A stretch of DNA of 63,176 nt, the filler included, from Nemertoderma westbladi (Eukaryota > Animalia > Xenacoelomorpha): the NCBI GenBank assembly GCA_032718475.1. It is 3 parts of 3 records of this genome, joined end to end, with 100 filler letters (N's around TTAATTAATTAA, not from the genome) between each part and the next. Parts side by side here need not be neighbours in the genome. Positions count along the whole stretch, not along the records: positions 50,905 to 63,176 come from JAUCBJ010000670.1; 2 more parts are not named here. The stretch is one strand, 5' to 3'. The translations under genes and the position numbers were made by a program. Of the stretch, positions 1,401-63,176 are shown one piece after another. How positions within the stretch are numbered: the stretch's first letter is position 1; each line of letters starts with the position of its first letter. The notes under the pieces are model-generated. The model ran no database searches, had not been told where the DNA came from, and saw only the letters and a list, made by a program, of their open reading frames with translations.

Positions 1401-2670
1401 TCCACGAAGCTAAGGAAAATCAACTACTTTCGCTAAGAAAGATTTTCCTTAGCTGAGATGGTCTATTCATAGTGGGCTATTTTACTTGTGTGAGGCAGAT
1501 TTGGTTTTTTTTGATAGGTGAAAAAACTAGCCTTTAAAAGTACCCTGAAATTTTGCATGTATATACTACTCGACGAGGCGCATCTTTTGGGCCGGGTCTC
1601 ATATCCAGGAAAAATCTGGTTTCCATGGCAACGGACTTCAAAAAAAGTCTATGTATTTCAAGTCAATATTTATAACTCTATTTGTAGGAAAACTATAATA
1701 GATATAAACTTGGGGTTTCTCAACTCAACTATAAGGTCCATAGCAGAGCCGATTGAAGTTAAATAGAAAATCCAGTTACCTTGGCAACCAGGCTAAACAG
1801 ATGTTAAAATTTATAAAATGTTAATTTGAAGCCTAAGGTTAAGGTGTTATTACTTGGGACCAACCCCTACCCCCACTATATAAATTATTCTGCGTCCGAA
1901 TTTGATTGTTCTATTTTGCAGTTACCATGACAACCGCTGAAAACAGATGTTTTTATGCAAAAATTACTCATTTGGACATAGACTTCATGATAAAATTTTA
2001 TGAAACTGGGTATGTGTTATCTGGACCACTAGTTGGGACTTTTGGTGAAACTGAAAACATTCCAGAAATATCTAGTTACCATGGTGACTGGAGTTTATTA
2101 AAGTCTATATCATTCAAGTCTAAATTCAATACTCTATTTGTAGCAAAATAATGTAATATATATAAATTTGGGGTTTTGCAACACATCTATAAGGTCCATC
2201 CATATACAAGCCGTTCCACGTTAATTACACAATCCAGTTACCATAGTAACAAGACTAAACAGATGTTAAAATTTATAAAATTATAATTATTGAAGCACAA
2301 GTTAATAGTATTATGACTTGGGACCAAGACCTACCCCCATTATATGACTGCATCCGAATTACATTGTTCTATTTTTCAGTTTCCATGACAACCACTGCAA
2401 ACAGTTGCATTTTAATAGAAAATCGGTAATTTGGACATAAACTACAATATTTTCTGAAACTTGGTATGTGTTGTCTGAACCACAATCTTTACTGAATCTT
2501 TTTTCAAAGGTAAAACCAACAGTTCCAGAGAACTCTAGTTTCCATGGGAATATAAGTTAATTATTGGCAAATGCTACTAAACGAGGCTAAGCAACGAACC
2601 AAAGTGTGGCCGTTTGTTTAATTTTCCTTAGCTTCGTGGTTGCATTTCCTTTAGGAAATGCCTTTCTAGT
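1401..2670 (+). mobile_element. Non-autonomous Helentron-type element (HINE/DINE-1-like), copy 1
   Basis: 5' subterminal IR ccacgaagctaaggaaaat with an adjacent partial inverted copy (gattttccttagc), internal degenerate tandem subrepeats, 3' subTIR attttccttagcttcgtgg, then hairpin gcatttcct-tt-aggaaatgc. Confidence 0.75.
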
Positions 2671-2802
2671 TTAAGTAGCAGTGACGTAATCAAACCATTA
2701 CAATCAGGTGAATATTTGGGGTGGTTTAGCAGTTCGGCTAATAAACTGATTATTAGAGACCATTGTGGGGTCAGTGACCTCTAAGTCACCCATAAGGATT
2801 AT

Positions 2803-4068
2803 TCCACGAAGCTAAGGAAAATCAACTACTTTCGCTAAGAAAGATTTTCCTTAGCTGAGATGGTCTATTCATAGTGGGCTATTTTACTTGTATGGAGCAG
2901 ATTTGGGGTTTTTTGATAGGTGAAAAAACTAGCCTTTAAAAGTACCCTGAAATTTTGCATGTATATACTTCTCGATGAGGCGCATCTTTTGGGCCGGGTC
3001 TCATATCCAGGAAAAATCTGGTTTCCATGGCAACGGACTTCAAAAAAAGTCTGTGTATTTCAAGTCAATATTTATAACTCTATTTGTAGGAAAACTATAA
3101 TAGATATAAACTTGGGGTTTCGCAACTCAACTATAAGGTCCATAGCAGATCCGATTGAGGCTAAATAGAAAATCCAGTTACCTTAGCAACCGGGATAAAC
3201 AGATGTTAAAATTTATAAAATGTTAATTTGAGGCCTAAGGGCAAGGTGTTATGACTTGGGACCAATCCCTACCCCCACTATATAACTTATTCTGCATCCG
3301 AATTACATTGTTCTATTTTTCAGTTACCATGACAACCGCTGAAAACAGATGTTTTTATTCAAAACTTATTCATTTGGACATAGACTTCATGATAAAATTT
3401 TACAAAACTGTGTATGTGTTATCTGGACCACTAGTTGGAACTTTTAGTGAAACTTAAATTATTCCAGAAATTTAGTTACCATGGTAACTGTAGTTTATTA
3501 AACTCTATATCATTCAAATCTATATTGATAACTCTATTTGTAGCAAAACTGTAATATATATAAACTTGAGGTTTTGCAACTCATCTATAAGATCCATATC
3601 CAAGCCGTTTGAGGTTAATTAGAAAATACAGTTACCATAGCAACAAGTCTAAACAGATGTTAAAATTTATAACATGATAATTTGAAGCACAAGTTAATAG
3701 TATTATGACTTGGGACTAACCCCTACCCCCACTATATGACTTATTCTGCATCCGAATTACATTGTTCTATTTTTTAGTTTCCATGACAACCACTGCAAAC
3801 AGATGCATTTTGATAGAAAATCGGTAATTTGGACATAAACTACAATATTTTCTGGAACTCAGTATGTGTTATCTGAACCACAATCTGTACTGAATTTTTT
3901 TTCAAAGGTTAAAGCAACAGTTCCAGAGAACTCTAGTTTCCATGGGAATATAAGTTAATTATTGACAATTGCTACTAAACGAGGCTAAGCAACGAACCAA
4001 AGTGTGGCCGTTTGTTTAATTTTCCTTAGCTTCGTGGTTGCATTTCCTTTAGGAAATGCCTTTCTCGT
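2803..4068 (+). mobile_element. HINE/DINE-1-like element, copy 2
   Basis: Same termini, subTIRs and 3' hairpin as copy 1, with high sequence similarity. Confidence 0.75.
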
Positions 4069-9706: not shown

Positions 9707-12538
9707 CTACAAGTAGAACAATCGGTGCGCCAACTCCAGTTTGGGTTCTTTGTTGTGGAGATGCATGCCGACCATCTGGCACAACTTGTGGGCGTATTGG
9801 CACGGGGCAGGGACCCTGACAGTGCCGGGCCAGTTGTAGTACATGTGGGTGAGCTTGTAGGCGAGTCGTTGCATGTGGTCCGGCTTCATACTGCCGGAGT
9901 CGTAGACGACGATGTAGTGGGTCGGCGAGACGGTGCCTTGACGCACGTGCTGCGAGATCAGGTAGAAGTCGTAGAGATCGACGCGCGTGATGCACTGATC
10001 GACGACGGTCCCGCTCCCGGGGTTGTCCACCGCGTCGGGGCCGCGACGCGCATATACCCGCTGGTTGATCCGCTTACCGACGACAACCACGGCGAACTTG
10101 GGGTCGTAGTCCTTCCCGAAACTCGCGAAGGTACCCCGGATCTGGACCACCTCGCTGTCCCGGACCACGCCCAGCTGCCCGTTACCCACTCCGTCTCGGA
10201 ACACGATGATCCTCTCCGGTAACGCGTGATTCTCGTCGTGCCACGCCTTGATCCCACACGCGATGTACATGGTGAGCCCGTCAATGATCTCCTGGTTCTT
10301 CCCCTGGATGAGAACTCGCGAGAACCACCTAGTGAAGTTCTTATTAAGGGAACTAACAACACCCGCGACCGATTTCCCTCCCGCTTTATCGTGGTACACA
10401 TCTATCCCGATCACCATGGTCGAGCGCAACGGATTATCCACGGCCCACAACTCCCCGCCTAACTTGGCGTTCATCTGTAGCGCGATCTTTTGCGAAATAC
10501 TCCGGAGTTTGTTGGGCTGACCGGAGATCGTCTTGGAGTTGATGCACTGACACGCGACCGGAAGGTCCGCGTAACACAACTTCTTCACGGCGGAGTAGCG
10601 ATCGTCCCTGGGCGTCGGGAATATCGTCACGACCATCTGGGTATCGGGGGTCAACGACGACTTTATATTGTTAACGTAGGTCTCCGTGCGATCGTCGCGT
10701 AGGGCCACGTACTGGGGCGCGTTCACGTTCATGCCGATCTGCTGGGCGACCTTCTGTAGAGTCAACACGAACTCGCGAGCGGCGCTCTCATTTCGGTTCA
10801 CGAAGAACAGAGACCAGACGCGGAGGTCCACCGCCGTGATCATCGGCTCCCGCACCACGTCCCGCGTCCAATCCGCCTCGGGGCCGCTCATTACCGTCTT
10901 CCGAGCCAACAGGATCTTCTCCTGCGGCAACAAGCGCGCCTCCGTGCCCAGCACGTCCTCGTCCAACTCCACCTTCCACTTCTCCATCTCGGCGCGCGCC
11001 TCGTTGCTCGCGTACAGCCGCTCCTTGAACTGCCGCATCACGGCCAACCGCTGGTTCGGCGTGACCCGCGTGTGCACCGCCACGTCCTTCATGACCCGGA
11101 AGTCGGCCCGTTGGGCGTCCGTCAACCCCGTCATGAAACACAACTCCGGGACCAGACAGACCATCTGGGTCTCCTCCTTCCCGTCCTGGGTACGCCGCTT
11201 CGGGTTGCTAACCAACAGCGGCTGCTCCAAGTCCGAGATGTTCACGTTGTAGTGGTCATTGTAGTAGTCCATATAGGCCTTCTCCCCTCCCTGGCGCGTT
11301 GGGAACGTACATGTTGGGTTCTTGTCCCAGAAGATGTCGTCAATCTTGTAGGTTCTGTTGTTGTACCGGGTCAACACGATCTGGCCTACCAGTTGCCTGT
11401 AGATGGTCTCCTTGAAGTTGTCCCGCGCTGTCCGGTATAACCCCTTCATGTACTGCAGCACGGTCTCAGTGCGCAGCAGCTTGTGTGACACATCGAGCAG
11501 CAACATGATCCCCCCGTCGTACTCCTCTATGGAGGTTATGTAGCCCGGCCACAACTCGATTTTGTGCTGCGGCACCTGCATCGGCGTCTTAGGGTCGTAG
11601 TAGTTCCGCCCGACCTGCGTCATCTTGAGGATGCGGAGAAGTTTCCGGAACAATATGTTGTACTGCTGGAGGCAGCGGCCCGGTCGCACCGACTTGACGA
11701 AGACGACTTCGATGGTGATGACCTCGTTGTCGGTGATCCGGGTTGACTGGAAGACAGTCCTCTGCTCCGGTAGCTCAATGGGGAGCCAGAGTTGGCTGCC
11801 GTCGAAGGTCTTGGTGTTCCCGAGGGCTTCACGATGCATGTCGAGGAGAGAAAAGCGCATGTCGCGACTGTCGATGTCTGGCGAGTAGTGCACGGCGTAC
11901 TGGTACAAACCGTAGTCGCGGGTTTTCAGTTTGATGTAGTTGACGAGCACATCCACCTTCTCGCCCGTCACCCCGATGTACTTCTTTACCTCCATATCGG
12001 CCTCCACAGCCCGTCCCATGACGGGCTGTGACGGCACCCGCTCCCCATGGCTGGGGCTGACGCCCATCGGCGGGGTGCGAACCGGGGCCCCCGGTACTCG
12101 CTCGGGGCTGGTACCCACGCGCGTCGAGCCCGTTACTGTCGCCTGCGCGGCGAACTGGGACGCCAGAGTCGTGTCCCCGGGCGGTTGGTGCTGCCGCATC
12201 TGTTGTAGCATCATCTGGGCGCGGCCCATCCCCGGTCGGGGCACCGCAGCCTCGGGTGGTCGCACAAGAGCGACTGCGGTTGCGTCACCACCCCCGCTGT
12301 GGTAGACGCCACCAGCGGTAGGCTCAGCCGGCGCTCCCGGGACGGGGTAGACACTCTGCTGAGCGGCGGCCAACAGAGCCCGGGCTCTCCCACCTGCTCG
12401 TCCGACTGGGGGCACCGCGGCGCCCACTGTAGGCATCGCACCCGGTTGCTGGACCCCTCTCCCCTCTTCGCTATCTCCTGCTTGCTTCTGAAGAGCCGCC
12501 AATAACGCGGCCCCTCTACCCCCTCTTCCCATAGCCAT
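9707..12538 (-). CDS. piwi: Piwi-clade Argonaute, PIWIL2/Ago3-like, intronless coding sequence, 943 aa
   Basis: Uninterrupted ORF. N-terminal GRG/GRA repeats; PAZ (VLTRYNNRTYKIDDI, LVPELCFMTGL); MID (RDDRYSAVKK, QMNAKLGGELW); PIWI with catalytic D (VIGIDVYHD), E (NQEIID), D (IVFRDGVG), H (YAHKL); C-terminal LFYL. GRGAALLAALQK and KLRSISQKIALQ resemble the Ago3/PIWIL2 clade. Confidence 0.97.
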   Translation of the reverse strand: MAMGRGGRGAALLAALQKQAGDSEEGRGVQQPGAMPTVGAAVPPVGRAGGRARALLAAAQQSVYPVPGAPAEPTAGGVYHSGGGDATAVALVRPPEAAVPRPGMGRAQMMLQQMRQHQPPGDTTLASQFAAQATVTGSTRVGTSPERVPGAPVRTPPMGVSPSHGERVPSQPVMGRAVEADMEVKKYIGVTGEKVDVLVNYIKLKTRDYGLYQYAVHYSPDIDSRDMRFSLLDMHREALGNTKTFDGSQLWLPIELPEQRTVFQSTRITDNEVITIEVVFVKSVRPGRCLQQYNILFRKLLRILKMTQVGRNYYDPKTPMQVPQHKIELWPGYITSIEEYDGGIMLLLDVSHKLLRTETVLQYMKGLYRTARDNFKETIYRQLVGQIVLTRYNNRTYKIDDIFWDKNPTCTFPTRQGGEKAYMDYYNDHYNVNISDLEQPLLVSNPKRRTQDGKEETQMVCLVPELCFMTGLTDAQRADFRVMKDVAVHTRVTPNQRLAVMRQFKERLYASNEARAEMEKWKVELDEDVLGTEARLLPQEKILLARKTVMSGPEADWTRDVVREPMITAVDLRVWSLFFVNRNESAAREFVLTLQKVAQQIGMNVNAPQYVALRDDRTETYVNNIKSSLTPDTQMVVTIFPTPRDDRYSAVKKLCYADLPVACQCINSKTISGQPNKLRSISQKIALQMNAKLGGELWAVDNPLRSTMVIGIDVYHDKAGGKSVAGVVSSLNKNFTRWFSRVLIQGKNQEIIDGLTMYIACGIKAWHDENHALPERIIVFRDGVGNGQLGVVRDSEVVQIRGTFASFGKDYDPKFAVVVVGKRINQRVYARRGPDAVDNPGSGTVVDQCITRVDLYDFYLISQHVRQGTVSPTHYIVVYDSGSMKPDHMQRLAYKLTHMYYNWPGTVRVPAPCQYAHKLCQMVGMHLHNKEPKLELAHRLFYL

Positions 12539-12895
12539 AGTTCGAGTTTGTTATGATTCGTCTGCTTGGCCAAATTCTGTATTATATTACCGGTACTGGT
12601 ATAATTATAATGCAATAGAATATAAACAAGCAATCATTAATCAGTGAGGTAACGCCAAGCCTATAGTCTGGGCGAATTACTGAATTAGCTATTCATTCGG
12701 AAAGTAAATACAATATATGACTGAATTTGGTATTATTCAACGCAAAATTGACTATTGCTGCTGTATTTGAATACTACTGACTGACTGATGTACGGTAGGC
12801 CTACCGTACACTATGACCCGTAACATACGGTATACCGGTATAGTCTCATTTTCTGATGACGCAATTTTTTCTACAAACCTACAAATCTTGAAATT

Positions 12896-20099: not shown

Positions 20100-20199
20100 N
20101 NNNNNNNNNNNNNNNNNNNNNNNNNNNNNNNNNNNNNNNNNNNTTAATTAATTAANNNNNNNNNNNNNNNNNNNNNNNNNNNNNNNNNNNNNNNNNNNN
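20100..20199. other. Assembly gap with artificial linker
   Basis: 44 N + TTAATTAATTAA (stops in all six frames) + 44 N. Confidence 0.97.
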
Positions 20200-41385: not shown

Positions 41386-42197
41386 AAATTGTGTCTATTT
41401 TAATATCAAATAATAAAACTCACGGGAATAAAATTTTAAATTAATATCCTCTCATGAATTTAATAAATTGTCATTTTATACAATTTATAAACATTCCCAA
41501 AATTCCATTAATTAATAGATCATGGGAGCGGAGATTCACCCTATTAAGTATATCAGTGTGAGAGAATCTCCAGTGTACAGTCAATAGACGATAAAATTCA
41601 TAAAATCATGTATAAGGGGAATATTGACAATTAAAGAATCACTATTAAATAGCATCCCAGATCTGTATGCATGAGAAATGCTAGCTTTGCATAATGTCAC
41701 CATAGTAACAACCACGCTAGAATTAGAAGTGAGTTAAAAGAACAATAGAAAGCTTGCCCCATTGAATAGCATGCAGAATAAATAGCAACTTGCTAGTATC
41801 TAGGGATACATAATAATAACGTGGCATTCTGGAAGGCATTTGACTAACAGAGAAATGGCCCTAATTTGTACAAATTGTTGCAGGAATGTGGAATTTGTGT
41901 ATTTATAGGTGAATGTTACTACTAAAGTGTGTTTACAGTAGCGAGTCGCAGTTGTGAAAGTTACTCTGCATCTGTAGCAAGTACCTCCAGTATATCCAAG
42001 ACCTTGGGATGGACAGTGGAGTGACTCGCGCTGGTTATTGTTGTCGTTGTGTAGCTACTACGTTGGCAAGAGGCACAGTGACGACAGTACATCAGCGCTG
42101 AGGATCTCACGCTGTCCGGGGGCATAGAAGGGGAGGCAGCGACGACCGTTAGCCTTATTATTATTAACTATAATATCGATAAACTCATATAGCGGCT

Positions 42198-43576
42198 ATG
42201 ACTGAGTTGATAGAAGATGATCTTGGTATCAGGGAGCGATATACCCTACCACTGCAAGCGTTTGTTGATAGTTTGATAAGCGGAGATGCTAGTCAACACA
42301 CGACAGAAAACGATGGCCGTTATATCGAACCGCCAATGTCAAAGGAACAGCTCAAGCATGAATTGGACTATCGGAAATTCACCGCTCGCTATACGCATCG
42401 TAATCGAACGTATATGGACTTCTTAACTACTGGTCATCCTATCGATTTACATGATACGGACGATGTAGACACCGAAAGGGAAATGATTCTATTTAAATAT
42501 CATGCCCAGCGGAGACGGAATGATAAACTGAGAATTGAACATGAAAATTCTATTCGAAACCGTCACGAAAGAGAAGATGTTGAAGAACCAGATAAACGTA
42601 ATGACTTCAACGAATATTTAGAATTCTTGAGAGAAACTTATCTCAATATGGCTAGTCAACAAAATCTAGAAACTCGATATCCTCAAGGTATAACCCTATG
42701 GTAGAAGTCAAACGACTCTATTTTACTATGATGTATCTTACCGCCGATCGACCGCTACCTGTTGTACCGGATAGCTTCGAACAGATGGAGGAATATTGTA
42801 AAACTGGAGAAAGATCACCAGCATTTCCCTTACAAGATGTGTGTCTTTGGTATTACTGCGATGAATGCCCTAGACCCAATCAACAAACGGAAAGACGTAA
42901 AAATCCGCGGAGACGTTGCGCTAAACACAGTTTTACTCGCTATACTTACGGGAGTTTTGAGCATAACTTGTTCGATGTATCACCTACGCTCGCTCGACTC
43001 AAACGATCCTTAAATAAACCTATGATCAGAGTTCCGGAATACTCGGTCAGACCTCCTCATTCCCTGGTGCGACCTCAGACTCTTGATCCTAATAGTATGA
43101 CGGATCCTCCTGAATTGTACTCATTGTTCAAAGATCTAGTGTTACCCGAACAATTAGTCGGTGGCACTCCGGTTATGGGCTCTCTAGATATTCGTCCATC
43201 CTACCTAGCCGGATTGGGACGCGGATATCTAATATCTCCGTTCAACCCGTATAATCGTCCCAGTTTAACTCCGATACAACCTGTCACCGAGGTGGAAGAA
43301 AGCGTTGTACAAAATGCGCTAGACGTTATTCGGCAAAAGATCGGAAAAGGAACCTACGATTGTTTAGACAAATGTAAATTGCAACAACAAGTCCAAGCGG
43401 TAAAAGAATTGGCTTTACCTCAGTTCGATCGAGAAATCCAGAATCTTGAGGAAGATATCGAACTTGGACGAACATACTCTCTACAAGAGTTCTTGGACAA
43501 GCGACTTTCCTACGACAAGCGGAGGAAAATCAGCTTGAGGAGAAGCACATCGAAATGGATGAGAGAGAGGAAGTAG
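42198..43576 (+). CDS. Unknown protein(s), two overlapping ORFs (168 and 292 aa), probably one frameshifted retroelement ORF
   Basis: Long open frames with protein-like composition, a 7-bp overlap and a CDEC...CAKH motif; abuts the RTE fragment. No family recognised. Confidence 0.5.
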
Positions 43577-50217: not shown

Positions 50218-50804
50218 CTACTACTAGGATCGGCATGCTGCATTGCAGCTGCATTTTTAAGAATGCTGTGCCGGCTTGTCAACAAAATTGCACCGCCACA
50301 ACTCCCTATCACCCATGACATTTGCTAGATCATCCGCATCTTTAAGGCCAGTGTCCTTTAAGATGCGTCTCAAGAAAGTCATGGGCTGTCCACCATGCTT
50401 ATTCACTCCATGAGGCTGCCAAAGTACAAGATTATGCACTGGCTGGTCCTCACGGCGAAAGCAATGTCCTGCAAAGCGGAGGCGATTTTGTTCTAGTGTC
50501 AAGCTTGGGGGAACCAATGAGACACCTCCAATGTTATATAGTGTCTGGTTGGAGATGTGTGCATTGTACTTGACACAATGTACCCGGCGTAGCATTCTTG
50601 TGAATGTGCCATCCAGAGATTTGGTGTCCTCAGCAGTTAGAGCCCAGCATGGACTCCCGTAGAGGAGTACTGGAACTACTGCTGCTCTAAATAATCGGAC
50701 CTTAAGTTTCCGATTAATTCTAGGTGACTTCCAAATCCTGGAAAGCCTATTCAAGGCTGCCCATGCCTCTTTCCCTTACGTATTCGAAGGTCCTCACCTG
50801 ACTT
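50218..50804 (-). mobile_element. RTE-clade LINE 3' end with (TAG)n tail, cut by the gap
   Basis: KLKVRLFRAAVVPVLLYGS, RLRFAGHCFRR, DRELWR; near-identical to the copy at 58932-59780. Confidence 0.92.
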
Positions 50805-50904
50805 NNNNNNNNNNNNNNNNNNNNNNNNNNNNNNNNNNNNNNNNNNNNTTAATTAATTAANNNNNNNNNNNNNNNNNNNNNNNNNNNNNNNNNNNNNNNN
50901 NNNN
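50805..50904. other. Assembly gap with artificial linker
   Basis: 44 N + TTAATTAATTAA + 44 N. Confidence 0.97.
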
Positions 50905-56692: not shown

Positions 56693-57720
56693 TCAGTTAT
56701 CAACTATGAATGTCATTGTTCGTACCCCTTGTATTTCCCACATTCCTATGACATTACATGGTAAAATCTGAATTTGTTTCACTGTTTGAACATCTGGAGT
56801 CCGAGGGTGGCGCCACTTAGCATCACTTGCTGCATCTACTCTGACTAGGTGCTCAACATCAAATGTATCATCTTCATTTTTTGACTGAACGAGACCAATG
56901 TGCCATTTTCTTCCATTTTGATCATCCCATATCACTGCTTTCATATCATTAATCTGTATATCATCATCGTTGCTATTGTCAGAAACTGCAATATCTGATT
57001 GTGTAATGAGTTTGTCAACTGCATTATCAGATATTCCACCATAATTGTAAAGTTTATTCAAATCTTCTTCATACATGATTCCATGGGCACTTTTATTTTC
57101 AATCTCTTGATTGCCAGCAAGAATAATTGCCAGATTGGCTTTTAATTGAGTCAGAGTCTGTTGGTTAAGTTTATATAATTGCGGACGGACCGAGTAATCT
57201 TTGGGTGAAGTATGTCGTCTGTATGATATTTCTGTTCGCATCACTTTTTTCAAATATAGTTCATCATATCCTGCTTTGATTTTTCTACCATATTTAAGAA
57301 TGGCATTGTTACTTTGTATGTGAACCATGCTAGACTCTTCAACCTAATTTCAATAAGTGGATAGTCCAAGTACAACCTACATGCCTGAATGAGAACATTT
57401 GAACGAGTAGTAGAACTTAGAAGCTTATCAATGTCACTCAGGTGATACACAATTGCAGCCGCAGTGTAACCAAGTTTAGCAAATCTTCTTTCAGTGTAAA
57501 TTGAGAATTTTTTGCGTTTGCTGTCTCGGGCGAGCTGAACATCGAACTCTTCAAACAGGGACGACTGATGTCCATCATTTGTTACCAATTTCTGGAATGC
57601 AGTGATAGCTGCAACAGTTACACACTTGTTTGTTGGCAAGAAAGATCGTAAGAATGGTTGATGCGAAAGTATTGATTCATGCAGATTAGATTGGCGTTCA
57701 AGTTCTAACAAAACAAGCAA
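56693..57720 (-). pseudogene. Degenerate DNA-transposase-like fragment with a C-terminal Tudor/SH3-like module
   Basis: Two overlapping ORFs: ERRFAKLG...NVLIQACRLYL...YKVTMPFLNMVE and AVIWDD..RKWHIGLV...FDVEHL...KWRHP..PDVQ. Pattern resembles invertebrate transposase tails; family not assignable. Confidence 0.45.
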
Positions 57721-58088
57721 GTTCTCTATTGCTGTTATCTAAAGCTCTCTATTGTATGGCTCTGTTTAAACCGACCCAAGACAACATTAGGATGTGAACA
57801 CAGAATTCCATTGCCTATTCATTTCAATGGTAGCCAACTTGTCTTTCTTGGGGGGTAGACCTTTGGTTAGCTTTCCTTTGTGTTATACAAAGATAGCGGC
57901 AGGAATAAAGAGAAATACCGACCTCACTAATGGGCTGTTCCCTCAGGTCGGCTTAAGGTACAGTTGGGTTGTAGGTACTACAGTTTGAATGTTCAAGGGC
58001 GCCAGTACCCACCCAGCCCAGTCTCTATCCTAGTGCACAGGATGAGGCGAGTTGAGTTGGAGTTGAGCGTGGGTGGAGTGATTGACAA

Positions 58089-58600
58089 GTTAGTTGGAGA
58101 GTTAGTTAGTAGTAAGAGGGTACGTAGTACCGTTAGTTGGAGAGTTAGTTAGTAGTAAGAGGGTACGTAGTACCGTTAGTTGGAGAGTTAGTTAGTAGTA
58201 AGAGGGTACATAGTACCGTTAGTTGGAGAGTTAGTTAGTAGTAAGAGGGTACGTAGTACCGGCAGTAAGAGTTAGTGGAGTTAGAGAAGTTAGTAAGAGG
58301 GTACATAGTACCGGCAGTAAGAGTTAGTGGAGTTAGAGAAGTTAGTAAGAGGGTATGTAATACCGCAGTAAGAGTTAGTGGAGTTAGAGAAGTTAGTAAG
58401 AGGGTACGTATTACCGGCAATAAGAGTTAGTGGAGTTAGAGAAGTTAGTAAGAGGGTACGTAGTACCGGCAGTAAGAGTTAGTGGAGTTAGAGAAGTTAG
58501 TAAGAGGGTATGTATAGTACCGTTAGTAGTAAGAGTTAGTGGTAAGATGGTATATAGTATACAGTAAGAGTTAGTAAGAGTTAGTAGAAATTAGCTAGGA
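58089..58600. repeat. Compound strand-asymmetric minisatellite: 43-bp unit x4, then about 52-bp unit x5
   Basis: gttagttggagagttagttagtagtaagagggtacgtagtacc, then ggcagtaagagttagtggagttagagaagttagtaagagggtac.tagtacc. Confidence 0.92.
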
Positions 58601-58931
58601 AGTTAGTAGTGAGTAGCGAGAGGGGGGGCACGTGGGTACAGCTGGGCAGATCGTGTAGGCCGCACGAGACATACTGCTGTACTGCACAAGCCCATAGAGT
58701 AGGCCAGAATATGGATTAGAATAGAAATAATCCATTAGTAAATTGATAGCACAGTCATAGAATTAAAATAAATATTAGAAATTAGAAATTAAACAAATTA
58801 TGGTAACAGTAGTAGGGAAAATATTCCAGAACATAATTAAAGTAACGGACAGAATTACGAAATTTGGTAGAAATTAGCAATTTTAGAAAATAAGATAGGA
58901 AAATTAGGCAATAACCTGACATTCAGCGAGA

Positions 58932-59780
58932 CTACTACTACTAGGATCGGCATGCTGCATTGCAGCTGCATTTTTAAGAATGCTGTGCCGGCTTGTCAAC
59001 AAAATTGCACCGCCACAACTCCCTATCACCCATGACATTTGCTAGATCATCCGCATCTTTAAGGCCAGTGTCCTTTAAGATGCGTCTCAAGAAAGTCATG
59101 GGCTGTCCACCATGCTTATTCACTCCATGAGGCTGCCAAAGTACAAGATTATGCACTGGCTGGTCCTCACGGCGAAAGCAATGTCCTGCAAAGCGGAGGC
59201 GATTTTGTTCTAGTGTCAAGCTTGGGGGAACCAATGAGACACCTCCAATGTTATATAGTGTCTGGTTGGAGATGTGTGCATTGTACTTGACACAATGAAC
59301 CCGGTGTAGCATTCTTGTGAATGTGCCATCCAGAGATTTGGTGTCCTCAGCAGTTAGAGCCCAGCATGGACTCCCGTAGAGGAGTACTGGAACTACTGCT
59401 GCTCTAAATAATCGGACCTTAAGTTTCCAATTAATTCTCGGTGACTTCTAAATCCTGGAAAGCCTATTCAAGGCTGCCCATGCCTTTCCCTTACGTATTC
59501 GAAGGTCCTCACCTGACTTCCGGATCCATGATCCCAGGTAACAGAAGTCGTCCACATGCTCAAGCATACCATCCTTTGAGCTTATGCTCATCCGATCAGA
59601 GACTTGCTGAGGACTTTCAAAGTTAACGGTCAGAATTTTGGTCTTTCTGGAGTTAATAAAAAGACCAACACTAGAAGCAGCATGTTCTAATGAGCTGAGG
59701 AGCCGTTGGGCTCCCTCTAATGATTCTGAGAGTACTCCTAAGTCATCAGCAAAGTCTAGATCAGTTAGGTACTTGGCAGG
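58932..59780 (-). mobile_element. 5'-truncated RTE LINE insertion with TSD
   Basis: RT motif DLDFADD, FCYLGSW, (TAG)n tail; 11-bp TSD attcagcgaga at 58921-58931 and 59781-59791. Confidence 0.95.
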
Positions 59781-59896
59781 ATTCAGCGAGAGGTAGGCCA
59801 TTATCGGACAGTACAAACCATCCTAACTTCATCACTCATCTGTATTGCGCCTTGGCAAGGCACCACCTTATAGGTGAGCGATTGGGAGAGTTCGAA

Positions 59897-62450
59897 ATGG
59901 CGGAGAAACTTGTTCGAAAGAGAAAGGCGGAGTTGGGAGGAAAGGAGATACTGGTGGATTTCACCGAGAGGCATCCGGAAGAGAAGACGAGGGGATACTA
60001 CGAGCGGTTAAAGAGGGGTCACAAAGCGCGAGCGCTGTAGGACCATTTCAGGGAGGTCCACGAACAGCGGCTGGTTGGGACCTACGGGACACCGTCGCTA
60101 GACAACGCAATCTTCGAGCATTTCCACTACGTGGTGAAGGGAGACGAGGCGAAGTTCGGGATACCGAAGTACCCAAAGGAACCACCGAGAAAGGACTGGA
60201 AGAGGTTCGTAGAGTCCGTCAGCAGGCTAGGATACACGGTCCCAGACGATGAGGGGTCTGTGGAGGACGAGGAAGGTTCGAGGAGAGGCTCGGCGGGGTC
60301 GGCCAGAACCATACTCCTGCATTTGGCCGCGCCAATTGGGGACATTTTCCTATTCGACCTGGGAACGTATGGGAAGAAGAATGGGCCGAAGTTGAACCGG
60401 TTGCCAAAGGCAGTGCAAACCCTAGTAAGAGAGAAGTAGACAATAAAGGTGGGATCGGCGATCCGCGACGATGCGGAGAGGATCATCGGTCTGGACACCC
60501 CCAACCTCCTGGACATGCAGACGGTCTACATGGCTATGACAGGGCCAGACGGGTTGGGACTAGTAGGGAACGCAGGCCATTGTGGAGCGGTGGCGATGGG
60601 CCAACTAATGGGGCTCGTGTGTCACAAACCAATGGACTGGGGTGAATTCAGAGAGGAGTACGGAGCGGAGTTGGCAAACTCGCTGAAGTGGGGAGCGAGA
60701 CCGGGGAAGCAAGAGGTGTATCAATTCCGGAGAGGAGTGATAAAGGTATATCAGAAGCGATATATCCTGCAGGAGGACTGGATAATGATAGGTTTGCTAA
60801 ACCTATTCATGACCGTGGTTATTGAGAGAGAAACAACGGCATTCCTGTTATCGGGATCACCCCTGAACTACAGAAGAGCCTTCAAAATGGCTTTCGAGGG
60901 TCTGGTAGACCACCCGGGGCTGAAGGGCGAGTCGGTATATTATAACTGCCGATCTCTAGTAGACGGGGAGGTGGATACGCTATATCAGAGGTGGGAGCAG
61001 CTAGAGGCGGATAGACGAGAGGCGAAGTGATTGGAAGAAATCGCTAGGCGAGAAAGGAGGGAGGCAGAAGAAAGGGAGGAGGAAGCAAAAAGGGAGAGCT
61101 ATGGATTCGAGGAACAGGCGGCCTTAGACAAGCTACACTGGACATCAGGGAGTTCGGGCGAGTCTCTAGGGTGAGAATTGGGGTGGACGGTGGGATCACC
61201 GAAACAGTCGACATCGGGATTGCAGGCGACGCCCATACCAGCGGGCGCCGAGGGTGATTTCACGCAGAGGAGGCCAGGTGAACTGGAAGGATGGAGAGTC
61301 ACGGGCGAGAGCCAAGGTGGGAAGGGTCACAGTGGATCCACCGGGATACCGGGATTGGAGCTACTCGCAGAGGAGGACGAGGATGATGATGAGTTCGGAG
61401 AGATGCCACCCATCGGGAGAATCGGCCACTCGGACACGGACTGGGTTGGCGGGAGGGTGGTGACGGCCAGCGGGGCGAGGGCCTTCTGTGATAGACCCGG
61501 CAAGCGGGCCTGGGTGCATGAGGAGCCGGCGATGGATTTCGTGGGGAGCACCATCAGGTTGGGCGAGCAACCAGGAACGGCACCACGGGCAGTAATCGGA
61601 GAGACGATGCCCGGGCGGGGCGAGGAGATAGACGTGGACAGGGACGCTAACGTCCAGAAGTTCGCTTACCAGCGACTCCACAGACTGAGGAGATCACTTG
61701 GGACGAAAGACGACATGGGGCGGGAGGCATTGGTACTCGGCTGCGATTACTACGGAAGGCAGACTCACCAGGAAAGGAGCTGCTTGTACCGATTCCAGAA
61801 AGGGACTAGTTGTCTCTACTGCCGTGAGTCGAGCGACAGGATGGGGGCGTGTCCTCGGTTGCACAACCGGTGTTCTAAGTGCAACTTCCGGGGGCATTAC
61901 AGACGCCAGTGCGACTGGATGGACGACGAGGAGAAGTTTAGGATTTTCGAGGAGTGGGCCGATGTCGGCGCCATGACCCAACAGCGGATGAAGGCCCAGG
62001 AATTCCGGTGGAGGTCAACCAGGAGGCCCACCTGGAGATCATTAAACGGAGACTTCCGTTTACTTATCAGGAGGTGTCAACGGCGGCGTCGTATGCCGGA
62101 GTGATAAATACGCAGAGATATCTGGACAGGTGGACGCCACAGAACCGAGGAGAGTTCAGAGATTTCTTGGCGTAGCATGTGCCGCGGGCTATGAAAGTGA
62201 TCCTATGGGATGCACTAGGGAGAAACAACAGGGCCATTCGGAGGGGCCACCCGCGAAGCGATACCAGGAGCTGATAACACCAGCGCCCAAGGAGTCGACG
62301 ACGGGAATCAGTAGAGAGGTGACGGCGAGGGTCAGGAATCTGAAAGGGGATAAGGGCAAGGGAGCGGCAGCGACCAGGAAACGACCGAGGGAGGAGGACG
62401 ACAGAGGGAAGGAGTTGAGATGGTTCCCAAAGTCAGGTGGAACGAACTAG
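59897..62450 (+). pseudogene. Disrupted large ORF: DEDDy (WRN/EXD/RNase D-like) 3'-5' exonuclease domain, coiled coil and clustered zinc knuckles
   Basis: ORFs starting at 59720, 60131, 60449 and 61178 share one frame, interrupted only by stops at 60038, 60437, 61028 and 61172. ExoI-like TVPDDEG; LLHLAAPIGDIFLFDL; LPKAVQTLV; ExoII-like IKVGSAIRDD; NLLDM; ExoIII-like YQKRYILQED. Knuckles CDY...H....C, CLYC...C, CSKCNFRGHYRRQC. Frameshifts after about 61995. Confidence 0.6.
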
Positions 62451-63176
62451 GACTTGGGTGTGGAGACGCCTGGAAGGCGCCACATGTGAAGTAATACGAA
62501 CTCCTAAGTGCAAATTTAATTAAAAGTGCAATTAGTATGTACGTATGTAGTAATCATTAGTATATAGTCACATAGAAAATACAATCAAAGTAAGTACTAT
62601 AGTCATATAACCTTTTCCAATTAGCTACTGGGACTGGGGACCAATTGACTATGACAGGACGGGGCATTGGACGACTTCACACTTCTTGAGTGCGACGGCA
62701 CAGGAGGGAAGGGTGAGGCTCGTCATGAGTGAGTGGGTTAGTTAGAGGTTGAGTATAGAACGCGTGGAGGGAAGGCGAGTGCAATTCAAGTGTGGGGGGG
62801 AGGAGTAAGAGGTAGAGTGAGGGACAAGGAGGTCCGAGAGTTAGAGTGGAGGAGAGGTTAGAGTCGGTTAGAGCGGAGTTAGAGTGGAGAGAGTAGTGGA
62901 GAGGTAAAAATTGTGTGAGAAATCCACAATCGTCTCGACACGGGACGCCAGATGTCTTAGTGCAAGGTAGGCGAAGTTGCACCAGAGAGGGTAGCAATTA
63001 TCATGCCCATAGGGAGCAGCCTGGAAAGCCGGCTCCGAGAAAGAGAACTCCACCTCACACCCGATAGTAGATCGGGTTCCAGCGGATTTGAAGCGCACTT
63101 GTCGGTTGATGCTATCTTCTCACCGGGAAGATAGCATGGGGGGGAGTGTGAGCGGATTCAATTCCGCCCACCATAA

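Follow-up and report, generated by a model that had tools for sequence, protein, structure and literature searches.

A decayed, high-copy transposon ORF of Nemertoderma westbladi predicted to encode a DEDD exonuclease with three zinc knuckles

Overview

A stretch of 63,176 nucleotides from the genome of Nemertoderma westbladi, referred to below as the window, carries at 59897-62450 a decayed open reading frame; in its intact form this would, by prediction, encode a protein in which a DEDD 3'-5' exonuclease is fused to three zinc knuckles. We read this ORF as the decayed copy of an accessory gene of a high-copy transposon, with an intact product that would act against host small RNAs; taken as a whole, this reading is plausible rather than probable. 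The window consists of three contigs joined by N-linkers at 20100-20199 and 50805-50904, and the ORF lies near the right end of contig 3, which terminates at 63176. The features around the ORF are as follows.

57724-58050, no strand assigned: left segment of a repeat block, which interrupts an unrelated transposase-like fragment and is possibly, but not necessarily, part of the element
58089-58585, plus strand: G/A/T-rich tandem repeats with units of 43 and 52 bases (Tandem Repeats Finder), upstream and non-coding
58931-59783, minus strand: 5'-truncated LINE fragment nested upstream of the ORF (RVT_1, E 2e-6), with loose ends at 58931 and 59783
59897-62450, plus strand: decayed accessory ORF, with stops at 60038, 60437, 61028, 61172 and 62173 and frameshifts near 62005-62012 and at 62212
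60190-60850, plus strand: predicted DEDD exonuclease domain (PDB profile, AlphaFold model, Foldseek, VIA-align and catalytic residues)
60990-61740, plus strand: E/R-rich helix and low-complexity linker, unconserved among relatives
61742-62004, plus strand: three CCHC-like zinc knuckles and a conserved FE..AD.G..T..R helix (alignments; window-excluded profile, E 3.9e-20)
62451-63137, plus strand: purine-rich 3' non-coding region with a hairpin-rich end (fold z -2.7 for 62940-63176)
63138-63146, plus strand: candidate polypurine tract, the sole such site in 63 kb, with 0.17 expected by shuffling
63147-63176, plus strand: candidate 3' LTR, of which 30 bases, starting with TGT, precede the cut at the contig end

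Reading frame and anatomy of the ORF

Read from the ATG at 59897, the frame extends over 702 codons with only four stops (60038, 60437, 61028 and 61172), as compared with 17-35 stops in the other five frames. The four ORF pieces that an earlier note on this DNA had joined into one frame do share this frame, but they extend no further than 62101, and two frameshifts are required to arrive at the C-terminus, the first into the frame of 61942-62175 and the second into that of 62046-62450, with the stop codon at 62448-62450. Length differences among public copies near 62005-62012 and at 62212 match this two-frameshift reading, and the end at 62450 is correct for the family; the middle frame has weak profile support (E 0.04). 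The ORF was described as intronless and purine-skewed, in agreement with the present reading, for which no intron is needed and the purine fraction along the ORF is 0.57-0.72. An alternative genetic code as the source of the stops was ruled out, because frameshifts accompany the stops and at least two of the stops are missing from other copies.

The exonuclease motifs and the knuckles were all located where they had been placed, with D-x-E at 60245-60253 and KVGSAIRDD at 60446-60472, followed by the ExoIII stretch at 60749-60778; the three knuckles occupy 61742-61783, 61811-61852 and 61850-61912. Three details need correction. The ExoIII stretch, given as Q..Y...(E)D, is present, but its acidic position aligns to the Glu and not to the next Asp. 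All three Cys/His knuckles exist, but the second lacks its His in the window copy when aligned with relatives. The E/R coiled coil corresponds to an E/R-rich stretch at about 61000-61110, but the relatives show no conservation of the coiled coil and linker. In the C-terminal cluster as a whole, the three CCHC-like units are accompanied by a further conserved His and by a helix that follows.

Fold and catalytic residues

A search of the PDB with the family profile gave EXD2 as the best match (E 1.1e-7), along with Egalitarian, WRN and Trypanosoma brucei RNase D (TbRND), while the single-sequence search of the PDB gave no match. The AlphaFold model built from 12 rows (the window and 11 relatives) reached a pLDDT of 66.9, as compared with 34.6 for the single-sequence model. 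Foldseek of the former returned 15 matches with E of 0.001 or below, all those listed being of the DEDD fold and EXD2, Egalitarian and TbRND leading, and VIA-align gave Z 12.0-11.4 and rmsd 3.4-4.1 with 151-173 aligned residues for the apPol exonuclease, diDNases, Nibbler, WRN and RNase D. For the model, an RNase H-like DEDD exonuclease fold is established. Profile and structure searches of the exonuclease region thus returned the fold that the earlier note had expected; its description of the domain as WRN-like stands for the DEDD fold but not for a special kinship, since EXD2, Nibbler, RNase D and Egalitarian are at least as near to the model as WRN is. Since DNA-specific enzymes are among the top VIA-align rows, DNA is also a possible substrate.

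The catalytic residues are kept in most of the 12 rows (ExoI D in 11, ExoI E in 12, ExoII D in 12 and the ExoIII acid in 11), despite an identity of about 20%. ExoIII reads Y-x3-E in the window and two relatives, Y-x3-D in four, Y-x3-N in one and H-x3-D in four members from pond assemblies. The catalytic set of the window reads D-E-D-E; one relative, P0015, lacks two of the acidic residues. The knuckle region showed weak matches to known knuckles of the PDB (best E 0.007), with resemblance to those of retroviral NC and Lin28. The proposed combination of a DEDD exonuclease with zinc knuckles is supported by the profile, Foldseek, VIA-align and these PDB knuckle matches.

Among host proteins, EXD2, Nibbler/Mut-7, the WRN exonuclease, Egalitarian and EXD1 belong to the same fold subgroup with 10-18% identity. 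The domains that accompany the exonuclease in host proteins of the EXD2, Mut-7 and WRN type (helicase, MUT7-C and others) were not detected in the window ORF or its relatives; in particular, Pfam gave no match to RecQ helicase, MUT7-C or HRDC in the window ORF or 15 relatives.

Relatives of the predicted protein

The Pfam scan of the ORF, with X at the stops, and of its pieces identified no family. When 1.84 billion representatives were scanned in full with HMMER, 15 matches emerged (E 8e-7 to 9e-4). Eight of these are long proteins that combine a nuclease-like region at the N-terminus with a Cys/His cluster at the C-terminus; the other seven are shorter, and only their cluster was matched. 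None of the 18 relatives examined carries a named annotation. A profile made from seven relatives, with the window excluded, detected the two domains of the window at E 9e-20 and 4e-20 (Z=1000), indicating that the kinship is non-circular; with a profile from the pond/BEL set, the two domains scored E 2e-3 and 2e-6. Word-indexed protein searches returned either nothing or the first row of the profile itself, except for the L006 query with three matches. Atlas matches were all below 0.9 and serve as leads only, the top cluster for P0007 being TbRND at 0.86. The family was not found in three scans of viral contigs, and the Piwi protein encoded in the window showed no similarity to the ORF protein. 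A lone locus from the metagenome scan was dropped, as it reads as an unrelated bacterial gene.

One relative, P0002, contains two complete triple-knuckle modules together with a more diverged nuclease region.

Copy number and selection

Of the sampled words, 34-40% were found in three runs of one organism. The summed contig depth, which is not a copy number, is about 1e4-6e4 over the ORF and about 1e2 in the left flank. A total of 7880 and 5035 contigs matched 59800-63176 in two studies (X1 and X2), and these are mostly 90-99% alike. Thousands of diverged contigs agree with the proposal of a mobile high-copy family and not with a single processed pseudogene; of the two outcomes that would count against the earlier note, a missing DEDD fold and a single-copy processed pseudogene of a host gene, neither was observed.

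The stops at 60038 and 62173 are missing from more than 99% of the depth in both X1 and X2. For the variants, 40 of 298 rows were listed, chosen by the tool, and 32 of the listed sites fall in the first frame. Among these 32 sites, the variants common to the copies lie at the third codon position in 11 of 12 cases (p 5e-5), whereas those private to the window copy do so in 7 of 20 (Fisher p 0.003 against the common ones). The third-position bias is therefore a property of the common but not of the private variants, indicating that the window copy decayed from a selected gene. This pattern fits a gene on which selection acts in the family and of which the window copy is dead.

Surroundings of the window copy

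The window is rich in transposons of animal type (BEL/Pao ORFs and LINE fragments). On the left of the ORF, two contigs match 57271-57723 and then diverge, and the summed depth in X1 increases from about 100-200 to about 2000-3700; the segment that follows, 57724-58050, gave no pol or LTR match. The LINE fragment nested between this segment and the ORF, which we take to be RTE-like, is flanked by a target duplication of 11 bases (58921-58931 and 59781-59791), and one X2 contig skips the insertion. Its family is very abundant (summed depth above 1e6), with a second copy in the window at 50218-50804, 98.8% alike. The earlier feature description had omitted both this LINE fragment (58931-59783) and the polypurine tract with TGT at 63138-63149.

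On the right, the candidate polypurine tract is located about 690 non-coding bases 3' of the ORF and is followed immediately by TGT (63147-63149). The contig depth in the last bin is about tenfold above that over the ORF. Neither Rfam nor ARAGORN gave a match, and Rfam gave none in the 3' region. At 63077-63172, a hairpin-rich segment without an Rfam match is covered about 10 times as deeply by contigs as the ORF; it may be a separate small repeat, or else a conserved signal located ahead of the tract.

Neither gag, pol nor a 5' LTR for the window copy was found in the window, contig 3 being queried with two BEL pols, nor was a second copy of the putative LTR. The left end contains no TG..CA segment with a target duplication, and the left and right sides share no similarity beyond low-complexity repeats. 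If the copy belongs to an LTR element, the lack of pol and of a second LTR in the window means that it is either non-autonomous or truncated at its 5' end. Membership of the window copy in the LTR class, with the ORF as its likely third ORF, is fairly likely from the polypurine tract, the TGT and their place behind the ORF. An LTR on the minus strand, accompanied by an antisense ORF and by a primer-binding site around 62953, was considered and dropped, because the depth is low at 62851-62963 and rises in the last bin only, and also because the plus-strand tract with TGT fits the BEL relatives described below.

Elsewhere in the window, two unexplained ORFs lie at 42183-43576 (plus strand), about 2 kb 3' of a BEL/Pao pol, and may represent a different accessory ORF; they gave no match to the family profile, nor did the window's own BEL elements. 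A complete, intronless piwi gene with PAZ and Piwi domains is located at 9707-12550 (minus strand) on contig 1, two N-linkers away from the ORF. Its G+C content is 54-60% in a contig of about 36%, and it adjoins an element that is presumably piggyBac-like; possibly it is a retrocopy. Since piwi and the ORF belong to different contigs, their proximity is a coincidence, as the earlier note had suspected.

Vehicles of distant relatives

A scan of genome contigs for the knuckle motif gave five matches, two of which are real (L002 and L006); the other three (L003-L005) were dropped without profile support. Both real loci belong to two pond assemblies that are titled as bacteria and hold eukaryote-like transposon contigs. 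The presence of BEL/Pao genes and introns points to eukaryotic contamination of these assemblies, which likely arose in binning. Profile searches of the two assemblies detected 13 places, corresponding to seven distinct loci.

In four of the seven (L017, L022, L025 and L026), the ORF lies directly 3' of a complete BEL/Pao pol (Pfam Peptidase_A17, RVT_1, rve and DUF5641) in the sense orientation. A G-tract and TGT follow the ORF immediately in L017 and L026, in the same layout as in the window; in L022 the G-tract is located 5' of the ORF and no TG comes after it, and no G-tract with TGT was seen within the short flank examined at L024/L025. For L025 and L026, the match of the ORF to the seven-relative profile is confined to the knuckles. 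In two loci (L018 and L019), an intron-split gene of the family lies upstream of a transposase-like ORF, for which Pfam gave no family up to E 10 and which we take to be CACTA/Mirage-like; the two loci align collinearly along about 20 kb, with 65-80% identity. No element gene is visible around the seventh locus, L006, the protein of which starts with a region that we assume from its motifs to be SGNH-like, as in P0022; for L006 this label has no PDB or Pfam support.

Three further observations concern these elements. The element in L018 and L019 (1-20000) is at least 20 kb long, with its ends outside the DNA covered, and contains several intron-bearing genes, an SGNH-like exon and the zinc-finger transposase-like ORF. 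In L006 (250-3783) and in P0022, the SGNH-like region, an RS-rich linker, the exonuclease and the knuckles form one ORF of 1057-1177 residues. In L022 (3542-9538, minus strand), the BEL/Pao gag-pol includes an in-frame deoxynucleoside kinase between protease and RT (dNK E 6e-46), and this kinase-bearing element also carries the exonuclease-knuckle ORF.

The pond members share about 16-21% identity with the window exonuclease, and in a quick tree they form a clade apart from the window, with long branches; the tree is unfinished and without an outgroup, and was not used to infer donors. The low identity and the separate clade mean that the pond loci illustrate the vehicles of the family, not the class of the window element, the vehicle context being that of distant members and not of the nearest relatives, P0002-P0015. 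The earlier proposal of an unrecognised element family is retained as far as a mobile high-copy family is concerned; instead of a new class, the known vehicles of relatives are BEL/Pao LTR elements and a giant element with a likely transposase.

Comparison with known systems

DEDDy ORF3s have been described in bdelloid rotifers across unrelated element classes, the Juno and Vesta LTR elements and the Athena/Terminon elements (Rodriguez et al. 2017, PMC5408684). In the accessible part of that 2017 report, these accessory nucleases appear without a demonstrated activity or role. The available text of PMC6431247 lists DEDDy ORFs in Terminons, and that of PMC6338049 cites the rotifer work; the accessible portions of papers on Daphnia (PMC2996953) and ostracods (PMC7998251) contain nothing on such ORFs. 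The window family resembles the bdelloid ORF3s, as far as they are described in these sources, in that a DEDD-type exonuclease serves as ORF3, an accessory ORF of LTR elements, and is common to unrelated classes, which supports the likeness to rotifer retroelement cargo pointed out in the earlier note. By the description available, the bdelloid ORF3 has the motif DEED and a Cys-His-Cys, in contrast to D-E-D-E and a C-terminal triple knuckle in the window, and it rides Juno, Vesta and Athena instead of BEL/Pao and a probable DNA transposon (PMC5408684, in part). A GDSL-DEDDy fusion of Adineta sp. 11, mentioned in the same source, may be compared with the SGNH-like region and DEDD domain of L006 and P0022, the label of the former region being unconfirmed. 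In the literature searched, mostly outside subscription journals, we found no triple-knuckle DEDD ORF and none in BEL/Pao elements or DNA transposons; relative to the 2017 rotifer ORF3s, the triple knuckle and these two vehicles are new within that scope.

A close parallel in architecture is TbRND (PDB 7C42/7C45; PMC7797062, accessible part), in which a DEDD exonuclease is likewise followed by several CCHC knuckles, and which was matched by both domain profiles and by fold (VIA-align Z 10.3). According to the same partly available source, TbRND is a mitochondrial enzyme encoded by the host and carries four knuckles, nearly identical to one another, on a linker of 28 residues, whereas the window family has three dissimilar knuckles, an extra conserved His, a helix after them and a linker of about 300 residues. 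The two architectures are likely convergent. In TbRND, the knuckles attach to single-stranded RNA and enhance the cleavage that the DEDD domain performs (PMC7797062, accessible part), and the shared architecture suggests, by analogy, the same way of working for the window family.

Proposed role and alternatives

In the proposed mechanism, the knuckles would likely grip single-stranded RNA and pass its 3' end into the active site, so that host small RNAs that silence the element would be destroyed or tied up; the nuclease would thereby likely help unrelated mobile elements to cope with host RNA silencing. By analogy with the trypanosome RNase D, RNA is quite probably the substrate. For the anti-silencing role itself our confidence stays a little short of even. 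It is suggested by the fact that the gene family adjoins not only BEL/Pao pol but also a transposase-like ORF in a probable DNA transposon, and since such a transposon has no RNA intermediate to process, the task should be independent of transposition chemistry. More doubtful, though worth stating, is the broader picture of an ancient family of triple-knuckle exoribonucleases that is traded among BEL/Pao, other LTR and giant DNA transposons of aquatic animals as a suppressor of piRNAs or siRNAs.

The same DNA-transposon context bears on a different function, in which the nuclease serves the element's own cycle by trimming the 3' ends of element RNA, primer or cDNA in the particle, with knuckles of the nucleocapsid type. 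The sense orientation of ORF3 3' of pol and the likeness of the knuckles to retroviral NC and Lin28 are in agreement with such a function, which has been put forward for the rotifer ORF3s (PMC5408684, accessible part). We consider it unlikely, in view of the intron-split members beside a transposase-like ORF in two collinear 20-kb loci, and of the window's own BEL elements, which are without a match to the family profile. Less likely still is a non-catalytic protein, an RNA-binding adaptor like Egalitarian, EXD1 or Maelstrom that would protect or transport element RNA in the germline. Egalitarian and EXD1 are indeed among the fold matches, P0015 lacks two acids, and L025 and L026 show no recognisable exonuclease match; against this, with identity at about 20%, 11 of the 12 rows still retain their catalytic acids.

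Two other explanations concern the nature of the window copy. It could be part of a DNA transposon, a Penelope-like element or another repeat, the G-run with TGT being there by chance. The window offers neither pol nor a second LTR, relatives also ride a probable DNA transposon, the G-run of L022 precedes the ORF without a TG after it, and the motif in the window was noticed after the fact. Nevertheless, only one such motif exists in 63 kb, and it is located on the right strand, 690 bases 3' of the ORF and at the contig break; in addition, the window ORF has no intron, a trait that it shares with the BEL-borne members but not with the transposase-linked ones. A copy outside the LTR class is thus improbable, roughly to the same degree as a role in the element's own cycle. 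The intronless, broken ORF and its fold matches to host enzymes might also indicate a processed pseudogene of a single-copy host gene of the EXD2/Mut-7 type. This explanation is largely refuted and in our judgement very improbable, given thousands of diverged contigs in two studies, the third-position bias among copies at the listed sites, the lack of a Pfam match or a named relative, and the location of relatives within transposons. We keep to the reading of a decayed accessory gene of a high-copy transposon, with the anti-silencing role as its tentative part.

Natural intact members of the family exist, and because the window copy is dead, the value of the finding rests in the family. If its members degrade or sequester small RNAs, they would represent an enzymatic counter-defence of animal transposons, and how such elements escape piRNAs would become directly testable.
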